From an uncultured Methanomassiliicoccales archaeon (GTDB lineage Archaea; Thermoplasmatota; Thermoplasmata; Methanomassiliicoccales; UBA472), in assembly GCA_963695345.1 (NCBI GenBank), contig OY968769.1, positions 96,001-160,000 on the forward strand: DNA of 64,000 nt, in the 5' to 3' direction. The position numbers and the translations under genes were made by a program. How positions within the stretch are numbered: the first letter of the stretch is position 1; each line of letters starts with the position of its first letter. The notes under the pieces were generated by a model. The model was not told the DNA's origin, ran no database searches, and saw only the letters and a list, made by a program, of their open reading frames with translations. Below are positions 16,145 through 21,363 of this stretch, piece by piece.

Positions 16145-16895
16145 ATGATCTCGAACGGCTGGATTGGGCTAAGGACGATGCTATGGTTCTCGACAAGAAA
16201 ACTTTTGCTTAACCGCAGATGGCTGATCGTGGCACTGCTCGCCCTGCTGGTCGCCGCCTTCTCAGGCTTTTCGGCGACGCAGAACATCGACCGACTGGAG
16301 GATGGGAGCAACATACTGGCAATGCTCATCCTCTCCTTCCTCCTGCCGGTGCTGGCGCTGGTATACGGGGCTTCGATGATCCGGAACGAGATCGACGACC
16401 GCAGCATCACAACCGTCGTCACCTCGCCCCTGGACCGCCGCGTATCCTACCTGGCATACTTCCTGGCGCTCATCCTGGTGCTTGGGGCGATGATGCTGTT
16501 GCTCAACATCGTGGGATGGTCGAGCTTTTTCCTGGTCGCCGGGATGGACGCTGAGGCGGTGGACCTGCTGCTGGGTTACTCGCTCATCCTGTTGATAGGC
16601 GGAGTGGTGTATGCCTCCCTGTTTTTGGCACTGGGCGTGGTGCTCAGGCAGCCGATCTATCTCGGACTCATCTACGTCTTTGTCTGGGAGGGGTTCGTGG
16701 GCTCGGCGCCCGGTGCCATAGGGGAGTTTACCATCGGGCACCAGCTGGGAGTAATCGCCTCCCAGGTCATCGGTGAGGGTGGGATATCACGCCTGAGTGG
16801 CGATCCCCTGATATCGGCGATGGCCCTTTTGGCGGTGACGGCAGTCAACCCTGGTCCTGGGGGCAGTGACCTTCCACGGGAAGGAGCTCCCCTGA
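16145..16895 (+). CDS. ABC-2 type permease (+1 frameshift near 16846; corrected stop at 16893-16895)
   Basis: TM helices and EIDDRSI motif; the corrected frame ends TLVLGAVTFHGKELP*, followed by a GC hairpin and T tract. Confidence 0.8.
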
Positions 16896-17342
16896 ACCGG
16901 CCATGGCCGAAAGGCCGCCTTTTTTTATTCTTTTTCAGGCAAGGATCGTTCGGAGACCTCCGACCCAGGGTAACTGAGATGGCATTGCGTTGTTGGGCGG
17001 TGAAGAGGGCTTTCATACCCTTCTTTCTCCCTATCGACGAAGACCAGGCCGATTGTTGGCACCGCCAGCGGAGCTGTGTATCCAATTGGCCAGGATCGTT
17101 CCGTCAGATCCATTCGATGCCGTGGTCGTGGCAGGGGGCGAAACGCTCGCCGACGATGACTGAGTCCCAAACCGCCGGAGCTGTGGCATGCATCTTGACT
17201 GCGTGGATAGGATCGCAACGAGGCAGGTATGGAGGGGATGAAAGCCCGCACGTTCTACGGCATTCGTTCGTCAGGACGATGTAAGTAACCGATGTGATCT
17301 TACATCTGTTGAACATAGCCCCTGAGATAGCATTCCCAATGA

Positions 17343-18498
17343 TCAGGCCGCAGGAGTGGGTATCTCTCCTTTCCCCGGTGGCGGCGTCGCCGAAGAGGAT
17401 GGCGCTGTTGTTGGTCAGGTCTCCCTTCTTGATCATCAGCTCGGAGTTCAGGAACTGCCGCGCCCCGAGGAACGCCATTCCGATGTTGTCCACCTGGAAG
17501 AGCCTCCCGTAGAACTGTTGGGTGAAGAGCTCGGCGCCGACCTCGGTCACCGGCCAGAAATAGCCGGCATAGGCCTGCACCCCTCTGGCGATGAAGGCGG
17601 CAGCGATCCCGTTGCTATGGTTCTCGTTCGACACCAGCCGCTTGCCTCCCGCCGCCCGCCCTGATTCACAGGCGCTGTTGAAGACGATGTACGGCGGTTT
17701 CTTCCATTTCAGGTCGAAGATCTCGTCAGCGGTAAGGTCCCCGTCCGCGAACCGTACCGCACTGGTCTCCGGTGCGGAAGGGTCGAATGAGCCGTGCCCG
17801 GAGAAATGAACGATGTCATAGTCCTCACTGGCCAGCCTTTCGGAGAAGGCCGCCAGCGTGGCCTGTTCCCGGGTCAATACATCCACCCTGACACTGAACC
17901 GGTCATACGGACCTTCCAGCTTTCGGAGCGCGTCGATCTCCCGTTCCCCCGCGGTCAGGTCGAGGGTCGGATTTCCGATCGCCAGTATCTTGACCACATT
18001 GTCCTCGTTCAATGGGTTGGCACCGGGTTCGGGGAATATCCTGGTGGTGACCAATCGACCGAAGGGGGTCACCATGGCCATCGGGACATCCCGGGCCATG
18101 AGCAGTTCCCAGGGAAGGTTGAGGATGGTCTCATCCACGTTCAGAAGGATCGCCGTGGGCTCGATGTTCGCCAGTACCTTGGTCCCCGGAACACCGATGA
18201 AGATGTCGTACAATCTCTTTCCCAGCAGTCGAACCCGTTCCTGGGCCTCCTTCGGTGAGAGGTCCTCTCTGACGCTCCACAGATAGAGCTCGTGCGTCGT
18301 GTCCAGCAGGTACCGCTCATCCTCCGGCTCTACCGTGATGTTCTGTTGCCAGGTCACCCCGGTCCCCTCCTCATGTATGGAGACGAGGAACTGGAGCGAC
18401 TCGCCATCCATTGGCAGGTCCCTGCTGTACCGGGCGATCGAGATGTGCAGCACTCGCGGAAGAGACTTCTTCATGCCTTTGCGATATTCACCTATCAT
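17343..18498 (-). CDS. CHAT domain (caspase-HetF) protease
   Basis: LNLPWELL, catalytic His in IVHFSGHG, catalytic Cys in FNSACESG, GYFWPV, LFGD. RBS ggagg lies upstream. Likely true stop at 17343 after a +1 shift. Confidence 0.88.
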
Positions 18499-18538
18499 GG
18501 CCAGGATACCTCCCTCCTTTCTTGTTTACACCCTATGA

Positions 18539-19361
18539 TCAGATCGTCAGCACCTTTTGCATTTCGAACGCGTCGTCCTTGTTCCCTACCCGGTCCAGGT
18601 TCGGTCTTTGATTCTTGGGCATCATCTTTACTATGCTCTCGTGCAATGTCAGGTAGTTCCCGTCGAACTGACCGTCGTTCCAGACCGCCCTCAGCATGGA
18701 AGTGAACAGACTGTTCCTCTCGCCGTCCCTGGATTGCTGCCAATCCTGGCAGCCGGAGATCAGGAGGACAGAGGCCTTCACGTCCTCTGCCCTGACGTTT
18801 GCGGTCTCCCTCTGGAGCTGGTCATAGAATTCCCTGTTGCTCTCGTATACGTCCTTCACGATCGAATCTGGCATCGCCTTCACCCGTGATCGGAACGGTG
18901 TACCCTGCTGCAACGAACGGATGACGTCCCCTTTGATGATCGTCCCGCTGTGGCAGCTGTCGGAGAAGACGATCACGCGCACCCCTTGGGCGAATTTGGA
19001 GTACAGCGCCAGGAGCTCATCGTCCATGATCTCACCGTCATAGAGGCACCAGGTCTCATCCTGTTCGTCGTCCTCGTCGCCATTCACATCCGGTAACCAG
19101 CTGCCATGGCCGGAATAGTAGAGCAGGAAAATGTCCCCCGACACCAGCACATTGGCCGCTTTCGTCATCTCGTCGATCACCGATTGCCTGGTCGCCTCCG
19201 CGGTAAAGAGGGCCTTTACCTCGAATCCTTTTGACCTGGCAATTTCGACCATGTCATTGGCATCCCCCTCACAGGCGTTCAGCTCGCCTGACCATTCGTT
19301 CGCGTACTTGTTGAGGGTCGACCCGGTTCAACCCGATTATCAATGCCTTTCCTATTGCCAT
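18539..19361 (-). CDS. Metacaspase (peptidase C14; +1 frameshift near 19315)
   Basis: N-terminal ALIIGLNRVDP...GELNACEGDANDM, dyad YYSGHG and FSDSCHSG, p10 region ISGCQDWQQSRDG. Confidence 0.92.
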
Positions 19362-19584
19362 ACGATCCCCTCGGCCACCCTGGATCGGGCTGGGCGTAAA
19401 TCGATCAATATTCATTCGTTATCGAAGTTATAAAACATTTCCGCCCGCCCCGGTTTCGATTCCTTGAAACTTATCGGACAAGGATATTGCCATATGGCGA
19501 TCGAGCTGACATCACCCTTGCATTGGTCAATTATACATTTTAATAGATGCAAATGCGTTAATTATACGATCGAGGGGGAGACAC

Positions 19585-20157
19585 ATGAAATGTCCTAAAT
19601 GTGGAGAGGAGAATCCGGATAATGCGTTGAAATGTGCCGCGTGCGATTATCCATTTACCAAGGCACCGCCACCGAGACCGGGCATAGACCCGTCCAGACC
19701 CCAGGATCCCGATTATGCGAAGAGGTACTGGGAGAGATTGGACCAGTTGTTCTACGACACGCTGAAGAACGCTGAGACGGCTTATAAGGTCAACCTGATC
19801 ATAAACCTGATCGTGGTCGCCGTCGGGATATCGCTCCTGGCATATTCGATGTATTATAGCTGGTTCAACAATCTGGATATCTACTCGGTGGGTTTTGGAG
19901 CATTGGGAGTGGTCACCTTCATAACCACGTTCTTCATCACCACGCAAAAGAAGATCCAAAGAAGGGTGGGGGACCTGACCCAGATCCAGATCGTGTACCG
20001 CTCCTATTGTCTCTTCGAGGAGGCGGTGGGCGACTGGGAGAGGAAGCATTCCGATGCGGACATGACGCTGCAGAACTTGGACGAGATAAATGCCCAACTT
20101 TCCAAGATGATGGCGTCGGCCACGAACAGCATAGAACAGGTCGTTGGGGAGGACTGA
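19585..20157 (+). CDS. Zinc-ribbon protein with two TM helices and helical tail
   Basis: MKCPKCG...CAAC zinc ribbon, Pro-rich linker, two hydrophobic helices; RBS gagggg. Confidence 0.8.
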   Translation: MKCPKCGEENPDNALKCAACDYPFTKAPPPRPGIDPSRPQDPDYAKRYWERLDQLFYDTLKNAETAYKVNLIINLIVVAVGISLLAYSMYYSWFNNLDIYSVGFGALGVVTFITTFFITTQKKIQRRVGDLTQIQIVYRSYCLFEEAVGDWERKHSDADMTLQNLDEINAQLSKMMASATNSIEQVVGED

Positions 20158-20333
20158 GGTACCGGTCACAGGCTGGACCGGTTCCGCCCCGATGGACAAG
20201 ATGAGGGGTTTCGATCATGCGGTGTCGGAGCCCATCTAGATATGGCAACCAAATCGAAATCCAAATATGCCCAGAACTTACGTAAAATTCATTCGCCATT
20301 ATACATGATCTTAATTTGACGGAGGAACGAGCA

Positions 20334-20625
20334 ATGATACCGGAGAAGCTGATGGAAATCATGGAAAAGGATGGAGTTGTCGCTATCGCCACCTTGGGCC
20401 CCGGCGGTCCACATATGGTCAATACTTGGAACAGCTATCTCAGAATTTCAAAGCAGGGGCAATTATTGATCCCAGTAGGCTACATGCATAGGACAGAGGC
20501 CAACATTGCCCACGATCCGAACATATTGATCACATTGGGCAGCAGCAAGGTAGAGGGCTTGCACGGAGCGGGCGCCGGTTTCCTGATCAAGGGAAAAGCG
20601 AGATTCTTAACCTCTGGCCCTGAAG
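20334..20625 (+). pseudogene. 3'-truncated pyridoxamine 5'-phosphate oxidase-family FMN-binding protein
   Basis: GVVAIAT, HMVNTWNSY, GFLIKGKARF; homology stops at TSGPE where the repeats begin. Confidence 0.75.
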
Positions 20626-21128
20626 ACCCCGGCGGAGTAACGGTTGGCAAGGATGCTATTCTGACCGGAGCTATCTATCTGCTGCCACACCACCATGGCA
20701 TTGCCGTTGATGTCCATGGCGATCTGCGGATTGGTTGCCTCCCCTGTACCGGACTCTAGCCAAACTGCCCCTCCCCAAACCCCGGCGGAGTAATGGTTGG
20801 CTAATATACTTTGGTTCCTTGAGCCGTCTGTCTGCTGCCACACCACCATGGCATTGCCGTTGATGTCCATGGCGATCTGCGGATTGGTTGCATTCCCGGT
20901 GCCAGCCTCTAGCCACACTGCGCCTCTCCAGGTCCCCGCAGAGTAACGGTTGGCGAGTATGCTCGTGTTACTAGAGCTGTCAACCTGTTGCCATACCACT
21001 ATGGCATCTCCATTGCCTGACCTGGCGATCTGCGGATTGGTTGCATTCCCGGTGCCAGCCTCTAGCCAGACCACTCCACTCCAAACCCCGGCGGAGTAAC
21101 GGTTGGCCAAGATGCTATAGTGACCGGA
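20626..21128 (-). repeat. 3.3 tandem 153-bp (51-aa) beta-propeller-like coding repeats; gene fragment
   Basis: Unit SILANRYSAGVWxGAVWLEAGTGNATNPQIAMDINGNAMVVWQQ; accccggcggagtaa-like start at 20626, 20779, about 20932 and 21085. Confidence 0.85.
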
Positions 21129-21363
21129 TTCCATTTCCGGCCTGGACGGATGAAAGAGAGCGGGATCGATCATGCCGACTCTCCTTTCATCTTCCCAATT
21201 TCCCCTTGAACCAATGATGGACCCGCGAACCGCCCTGCCAGATACTGAATGGATTCTTTTGATTCCCCGAACAAGAAATTTCGAGGAACCGAAATCTTCG
21301 GTTATTATTGGTTCAGAAACCTTCTTTATTGGCATCTGCCTGGGTTTGCCCCATGATCTGCTC

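Follow-up and report, generated by a model that had tools for sequence, protein, structure and literature searches.

What do two caspase-fold protease genes do side by side in an archaeal chromosome, and does the membrane protein gene that diverges from them belong with them? The question is raised by a stretch of 64,000 nucleotides (the window) from an uncultured Methanomassiliicoccales archaeon (Thermoplasmatota; GenBank assembly GCA_963695345.1, contig OY968769.1, positions 96,001 to 160,000 of the forward strand), in which the gene for a C14 (caspase/metacaspase family) peptidase lies directly upstream of the gene for a CHAT cysteine protease, a member of the family here called CHAT382, and head-to-head with the gene for a zinc-ribbon protein with two transmembrane (TM) helices. 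An earlier note, made from the sequence alone, had proposed a two-step proteolytic cascade that possibly releases the 2-TM protein as a membrane effector. The C14 and CHAT genes are a genuine, recurring pair. By analogy with a characterized bacterial system, we propose, at a probability of roughly 0.55, that they form a two-gene caspase-fold protease module, the minimal form of a widespread class of gene clusters, which likely acts as a defense or cell-death cascade. The zinc-ribbon/2-TM gene is probably a neighbor within the same accessory block, outside the protease module.

The two protease genes

The elements of the pair are as follows:

17343..18498, minus strand: stand-alone gene for a CHAT cysteine protease of the CHAT382 family (Pfam CHAT, family alignment)
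18499..18538, minus strand: spacer of 40 bp from the stop of the C14 gene to the start of the CHAT gene (ORF coordinates)
18539..19361, minus strand: gene for a GSU0716-type C14 (caspase/metacaspase family) peptidase (Pfam Peptidase_C14, match to PDB 3BIJ)

Open reading frame (ORF) coordinates and Pfam matches confirm two caspase-fold proteases on one strand, with the C14 gene 40 bp upstream of the CHAT gene, as the earlier note had described. The two genes are probably co-transcribed, and their junction is bridged by a 960-nt contig of a ~96%-identical relative that spans 18095–19054. The CHAT protein matches Pfam CHAT (PF12770) over residues 92–338 with 97.4 bits (cut-off, 24); Pfam finds an overlapping Peptidase_C25 match and no further domain, and a ~90-aa extension precedes the protease domain. 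The C14 protein matches Peptidase_C14 (PF00656) with 65.8 bits (cut-off, 21.4). In family alignments of 17 CHAT382 homologs (A1) and 18 C14 homologs (A2), the motifs HFSGHG and SACESG of the CHAT protein (H235 and C277) and YSGHG and DSCHSG of the C14 protein (H84 and C135) place the His and Cys of each dyad on invariant columns. The dyads are thus intact, as first read, and both proteases are predicted to be catalytically equipped.

A search with the CHAT382 protein returned 234 matches among 8000 candidates scored; the best 120 of these are mostly 380–386 aa long and 54–70% identical to it, with one at 96%. Between bacterial and archaeal phyla the identity is 55–70%. The 21 CHAT382 loci that we compared, all from species-representative genomes, belong to NC10, Chloroflexota, Acidobacteria, delta-proteobacteria, Bacillota, a cable bacterium, a Methanosarcinales metagenome-assembled genome (MAG), a Promethearchaeota MAG and a congener of the window organism. 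No CHAT382 relatives were found in viral contigs. In fold, the AlphaFold2 (AF2) model (pLDDT 64) comes closest to the CHAT domain of the activated SAVED-CHAT filament (8tl0_C), with Csx29/Craspase, DdvA and separase next; the family profile retrieved 0 chains from the PDB sequences at E≤0.01. The PADLOC SAVED_CHAT model does not match the window CHAT protein, and Pfam finds no SAVED domain in it.

The C14 family is likewise very conserved, at ~275 aa, with 6013 matches at E≤0.001, the best 120 of which are mostly 50–57% identical and come from Brocadia, Methanothrix, Nitrospirota and others; the window ORF is 50–72% identical to family members over 100% of its length. The family profile aligns full length (positions 1–276, E 2.7e-135) with chain 3bij_A, the Geobacter sulfurreducens protein GSU0716. 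GSU0716 (PDB 3BIJ) and the window C14 protein share the caspase fold family, the size and the dyad, and differ in that the window gene is a frameshifted copy. In the portions of the literature consulted, this structural-genomics protein is used as a modeling template or in classification, and no functional study of it was found there.

Recurrence of the pair

The window genome is a single closed contig of 2.56 Mb, whose small-subunit ribosomal RNA scores 1522 bits with the archaeal model versus 1104 bits with the bacterial one. In it CHAT and C14 are each matched exactly twice, and every C14 gene stands beside a CHAT gene; two C14–CHAT pairs in 2.56 Mb are far from chance. The second C14 protein is intact, with 273 aa and 71% identity to the window C14. 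At this second locus (L005 6874–12013; ~329.9–335.0 kb of the chromosome, G000:C1) the CHAT ORF comes first and the GSU0716-type C14 gene follows just downstream. A 141-aa ORF with BspA-type leucine-rich repeats (LRRs) overlaps, in another frame, a 635-aa ORF that encodes Fn3, TM and CHAT regions, and the two are probably one frameshifted receptor-like gene. A clostripain (C11) peptidase gene diverges from this CHAT–C14 pair.

The contents of the 21 CHAT382 loci are summarized below:

12/21 loci: a stand-alone 270–305-aa C14 gene in the cluster
10/21 loci: a C14 gene immediately next to CHAT382 (upstream at 7, downstream at 3)
6/21 loci: neighboring C14 and CHAT382 genes whose stop and start overlap by 4 nt
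14/21 loci: at least one additional caspase-fold gene
11/21 loci: further CHAT paralogs (TPR-CHAT, CHAT-NB-ARC-TPR, BspA-LRR-CHAT and ~390–495-aa forms)
6/21 loci: a conserved ~400-aa protein that matches neither Pfam nor PADLOC models
5/21 loci: a STAND NTPase gene (NACHT, NPHP3_N or NB-ARC), often with WD40 or TPR repeats
7/21 loci: a solitary CHAT382 (two on contigs with little flank)

The co-occurrence of C14 and CHAT is therefore real, because a stand-alone C14 gene accompanies CHAT382 in 12 of 21 loci and two independent pairs occur in the organism's own genome. The clusters recur with STAND NTPases, with TPR, WD40 and LRR sensors, with patatin and with multiple proteases, which bears on the earlier description of the CHAT protein as having no sensor: this holds at the window locus and fails for the family, whose members elsewhere are accompanied by NACHT/NB-ARC, WD40 and TPR proteins.

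Several of these clusters are of interest in their own right. In an NC10 MAG (L006, 3017–9149) a single same-strand array carries a GSU0716-type C14 gene, a patatin-like phospholipase gene, a 381-aa ORF, a coupled C14 gene and CHAT382; here the GSU0716-type C14 gene lies beside the patatin gene, 4 kb from CHAT382. Complete or partial clusters in the order C14, CHAT_B, ~400-aa protein, CHAT382 are found at L022, L026 (Promethearchaeota MAG) and L016 (Methanosarcinales MAG), and these are 59–68% identical to P0121, a 384-aa CHAT protein closely related to that of the window (96% identity). The ~400-aa protein is encoded at L007 (5215–6432), at L016 (10733–11929) and at four more CHAT382 loci, and may serve these clusters as substrate or effector.

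The surroundings of GSU0716-type C14 genes were surveyed at 80 metagenomic loci kept of 536 confirmed, with 23 of the 80 on contigs shorter than 3 kb. Several have another C14-domain protein nearby, and at four (L084, L090, L094 and L100) the C14 gene is adjoined by genes for CHAT proteins of 1165–1521 aa.

The distribution of the module is patchy. Among the 151 genomes of the order that were searched, CHAT382 was found in two, the second being a solitary, 60%-identical copy in congener G065, between LysE/FeoB and GluRS genes. Apart from this copy, neither protease gene nor the zinc-ribbon/2-TM gene was found in the congeners searched (0/5 for the C14 family). All three genes lie in a ~4.4-kb block (16.85–21.33 kb) that is missing from both regions of congener G056 compared, as befits the accessory region that the earlier note had suspected. 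In G056 and G065 the ABC operon and the URO-D gene that flank the block are widely separated or do not share a contig, and synteny with these congeners does not fix the exact ends of the insertion. From its distribution and sequence identity, the two-protease module appears to have been horizontally acquired.

A possible cascade and its rivals

How might such a pair work? The arrangement, in which a GSU0716-type C14 gene immediately precedes the gene for a 382-aa CHAT protease without a sensor, would be a minimal version of the CHAT–C14 cluster class. A CHAT protease would be switched on by a signal upstream of it and would cut the C14 peptidase, thereby activating it; once active, the C14 peptidase would act as a broad executioner, probably Arg/Lys-directed. 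The trigger and the final substrates would be encoded outside the window locus. This model follows, by analogy, from the type III-B CRISPR-CBASS hybrid of Haliangium ochraceum, for which the available text of Steens et al. describes an activated SAVED-CHAT protease that cleaves and activates PCaspase, which in turn degrades many proteins (10.1101/2023.06.23.546230). The parts consulted of two other reports place PCaspase among the commonest effector modules linked to proteases (10.1101/2025.11.14.688446) and describe the caspase-like protease of type IV Thoeris as a promiscuous executioner, arginine-specific according to a section heading (10.1101/2024.10.24.620036). Of the system first proposed for the window, the pairing of the two proteases is upheld by its recurrence, and a CHAT-to-caspase cascade has this experimental precedent, which the earlier note had not named; the release of the 2-TM protein as effector is not supported.

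The window locus resembles the SAVED-CHAT/PCaspase system in that one gene cluster encodes both a CHAT protease and, as a distinct protein, a C14 peptidase, and in that the CHAT382 model is closest in fold to 8tl0_C; the likeness of the window C14 to PCaspase is one of cluster content. Unlike that system, the locus has no SAVED, Cas10, CD-NTase, sigma factor, kinase or inhibitor genes. No CRISPR array is present in the window and no cyclase or gasdermin domain was detected by Pfam in the neighboring ORFs (12–25 kb), which agrees with the earlier note; with neither array nor cyclase, a link to CRISPR or CBASS was rejected. Craspase (Cas7-11 with TPR-CHAT/Csx29) and the CHAT or caspase proteases associated with gasdermins are also CHAT-fold enzymes that cleave specific defense effectors, and Csx29 chains rank high among the fold matches of the CHAT382 model, but the window locus has no TPR, CRISPR or gasdermin component. 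Borvo, a single-gene CHAT defense system (BovA in PADLOC), was considered in the same way: the CHAT domain of the window protein matches the BovA profile with E 2.5e-12, although only at positions 509–665 of 711, the long N-terminal part of BovA being absent. To our knowledge, Borvo has no C14 partner. The assignment was rejected since the CHAT domain alone is shared.

Several findings weigh against the cascade model. The C14 peptidase usually coupled to CHAT382 belongs to a different subfamily, ~30% identical to the window C14, and pairing with a GSU0716-type C14 occurs, besides the window, at one of the 21 loci (L020). GSU0716-type C14 genes have no fixed partner, with a CHAT-domain neighbor at 7 of the 80 metagenomic loci, and the seven solitary CHAT382 genes include the G065 copy. 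The ~400-aa protein is absent from the window genome, in which NACHT has no match over the cut-off either; no sensor is present in the locus or genome, and no effector was identified. The direction of cleavage, from CHAT to C14, is proposed by analogy. Among the sequencing runs listed as containing the locus, none is of RNA. The earlier note had tied novelty to a PADLOC search without hits; the search matched no known defense system as a whole, but the proteases do have domain-level matches, and no others, to BovA (positions 509–665 of 711) and to ‘caspase’. A predicted complex of CHAT382 and C14 (A1 and A2) scored 0.00 with controls not run, which is evidence neither way.

The cascade model can be extended to three tiers, with a sensor-linked CHAT protease (LRR, TPR, WD40 or NB-ARC) that would activate CHAT382, which would in turn activate the C14 executioner. 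Prokaryotes would then have an equivalent of the initiator and executioner caspases, disseminated by gene transfer through bacterial and archaeal lineages, Asgard archaea (Promethearchaeota) among them. Here, the tiers would be divided between the LRR-Fn3-TM-CHAT and C14 genes at ~330 kb and the window pair. We regard this extended scheme as speculative and rather improbable.

A more serious challenge comes from the reading frames, which the earlier note had suspected of being shifted, and which in this assembly are indeed shifted in both protease genes and in the adjoining transporter gene:

16145..17284, plus strand: ORF for an ABC-2 permease that converges on the CHAT gene, with a +1 frameshift at 16847

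The C14 gene starts with an ATG at 19361 and changes frame at ~19311 (+1), so that its first 17 codons, which encode the N-terminus typical of the family, are in the upstream frame. Its longest in-frame ORF (18539..19252) encodes 237 aa without the first beta-strand, versus 272–278 aa in homologs, and the public gene call (P0001) is this truncated form. As assembled, the CHAT ORF (17104..18498) encodes 464 aa, versus 380–386 aa in family members; it runs 80 aa beyond the family end because of one extra base at ~17352, two codons ahead of the family stop, which is present out of frame as a TGA at 17345–17343. The permease match to Pfam ABC2_membrane is confined to residues 26–181 of 379, and tblastx similarity of this region to congener G056 ends at 16846.

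Are these shifts errors of assembly, or is the locus a decaying remnant in which both protease genes and the permease gene are genuine frameshifted pseudogenes and nothing is functional any longer? Decay is suggested by their density, as three +1 shifts within 2.5 kb (16847 to 19311) exceed the ~4 shifts in 62 genes seen genome-wide, and this also counts against the cascade model, as does the fact that no contig of the relative spans the CHAT site at ~17352. The truncated public call, the module's lack of sensor and effector genes and a CHAT382 gene that is likewise split in another genome (L023) are consistent with decay as well. On the other side, each of the three shifts consists of one inserted base, which at 16847 and 19311 duplicates its neighbor; contigs of the ~96%-identical relative (run X1) have one base fewer at exactly these two sites, and the C14 frame is intact there. 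Elsewhere in the genome, 3 of 62 clear orthologs (compared with ORFs of at least 250 aa in congener G065) are split over frames by four shifts, three of which are insertions; conserved genes are split at 162.5–164.3, 179.6–180.4 and 1632.7–1633.6 kb. Completeness is 85%, versus 93–99% in six of seven sampled congeners and 55% in the seventh, and a closed contig that is only 85% complete points to an indel-prone assembly. Beyond the shifts the genes contain no stops, and the CHAT protein is 96% identical over 383 aa to the intact P0121, which ends normally, its own shift touching only the last two residues, where the two diverge. Assembly error is therefore the likelier explanation, and a reasonably probable one; decay is the strongest of the rivals and in our judgment unlikely.

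Less likely still, the two proteases may have ordinary roles outside biological conflict, in maturation, turnover or DdvA-like regulation, their adjacency reflecting shared regulation instead of a cascade. Such roles would fit a locus that matches no known defense system as a whole and is flanked by metabolic and transport genes (in a Pfam scan, an ABC transporter, a PNPOx-like gene, a URO-D family gene and ADH), would fit a CHAT382 gene that can stand alone among housekeeping genes, and would have a parallel in DdvA, a CHAT-containing anti-sigma factor that is among the fold matches. The patchy distribution (2 of 151 genomes of the order), the very high identity of CHAT382 across phyla and the repeated clustering with STAND NTPases, with TPR, WD40 and LRR sensors, with patatin and with multiple proteases are, however, traits of conflict systems rather than of housekeeping genes, so we consider this explanation improbable.

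The remaining proposal, that the neighboring membrane protein is part of the system, concerns the following elements:

19362..19584: divergent intergenic region of 223 bp (GC 0.46) between the C14 and zinc-ribbon/2-TM genes
19585..20157, plus strand: gene for a 190-aa protein with a zinc ribbon, a Pro-rich linker and a 2-TM helical hairpin

The ORF and the AF2 model (pLDDT 80; helices 42–95 and 99–154, tail helix 162–187) bear out the divergent zinc-ribbon/2-TM gene with a helical tail that the earlier note had described; the N-terminus has a CxxC...CxxC zinc ribbon, for which the Pfam zinc-ribbon match falls below cut-off (23.1 versus 25 bits). The family, which is small and uncharacterized, is defined by residues ~35–189, which match 180 representative clusters with variable N-termini at E≤1e-3, and occurs in 12 of 401 genomes of the phylum. 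No Pfam family fits the TM part, for which 37 members gave only scattered, chance-level matches at E≤1. SLATT_1–5 and PF20712 did not match the window protein at E≤1 and were absent from the 25 families shown (79 matched) for the 37 members. In the variable N-terminal tail of the family, ahead of the TM hairpin, an (A/V)PPR(D/E/P) motif is seen (alignment A3).

According to the proposal, the proteases act in sequence on the 2-TM protein, cutting the Pro-rich linker to release a membrane-disrupting hairpin. The 2-TM gene is head-to-head with the C14 gene, 223 bp away in the same ~4.4-kb block, and neither was found in the five congeners searched. PPR occurs in 21 of 150 family representatives versus 2.2 expected by shuffling, and the window protein has APPPRP; metacaspase-type C14 peptidases cleave after Arg or Lys. 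The protein atlas offers a weak lead to the TRADD-N-associated 2-TM family PF20712 (0.78, under the tool's 0.9 level). The ~96% relative has all three genes as well, but is too close for this to count as independent conservation. Yet the family's hidden Markov model (HMM) found no member at the 21 CHAT382 loci, where tblastn gave none either, or at the 80 C14 loci, subfamily HMMs found no C14 or CHAT gene within ~6 kb at 11 other archaeal loci of the 2-TM family, the neighbors scanned there are an integrase at L123 and housekeeping genes (UbiA, thymidylate kinase and FAA hydrolase) at L127, SLATT and CyanoTRADDas_TM were not among the 25 families shown for the 37 members at E≤1, and the protein has neither a PADLOC match nor a fold match in the PDB at E≤0.001. 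The three-gene co-occurrence and the 2-TM protein as released effector therefore did not hold up, and a three-gene system is very improbable.

The EACC1-caspase pairing also joins a small membrane protein to a caspase-superfamily protease, and in the parts consulted of Kaur et al. 2020 (PMC7159879) and Evans et al. (10.1101/2025.11.14.688446) EACC1 is described as turning into a pore once proteolysis has removed an inhibitory part. As described in the available text of the former, a single TM helix is conserved in EACC1, and its gene lies 5' of the caspase gene in the same orientation. The window protein has two TM helices, is divergently encoded and is not conserved with the proteases; from this comparison of descriptions, its identification as EACC1 was rejected on TM number and orientation.

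Beyond the zinc-ribbon/2-TM gene, a 242-aa ORF (20607–21335, minus strand) with about five ~45-aa repeats (ILANRYSAGVW ... NATNPQIA), for which no Pfam match was found, overlaps the 3' end of the PNPOx-like ORF (20316–20759, plus strand).

Meaning of the CHAT382 clusters

Caspase-fold protease cascades were long considered typical of animals. One bacterial cascade is now known, in which SAVED-CHAT activates PCaspase in dependence on CRISPR/CBASS signaling, so the logic of a CHAT protease joined to a caspase is already established. What appears to be new is a highly conserved, sensor-less CHAT protease, its coupling to stand-alone C14 peptidases and multi-protease/STAND clusters that reach into archaea. 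A word search of the literature found no description of the 382-aa CHAT family or its clusters, which might be included in the supplementary cluster lists of Steens, Evans and Kaur.

The CHAT382 family differs from the known cascade in being very conserved, widely transferred and sensor-less, and in occurring with C14 peptidases and often with CHAT paralogs and NLR-like NTPases, in clusters that span bacteria, methanogen relatives and Asgard archaea. The window copy is of lower value in itself, being minimal, frameshifted in the assembly and possibly a damaged example. If the clusters are cascades, they would offer tractable versions, both minimal (two-gene) and complete (five- or six-gene), and multi-step caspase-type signaling would be a common, modular prokaryotic invention.

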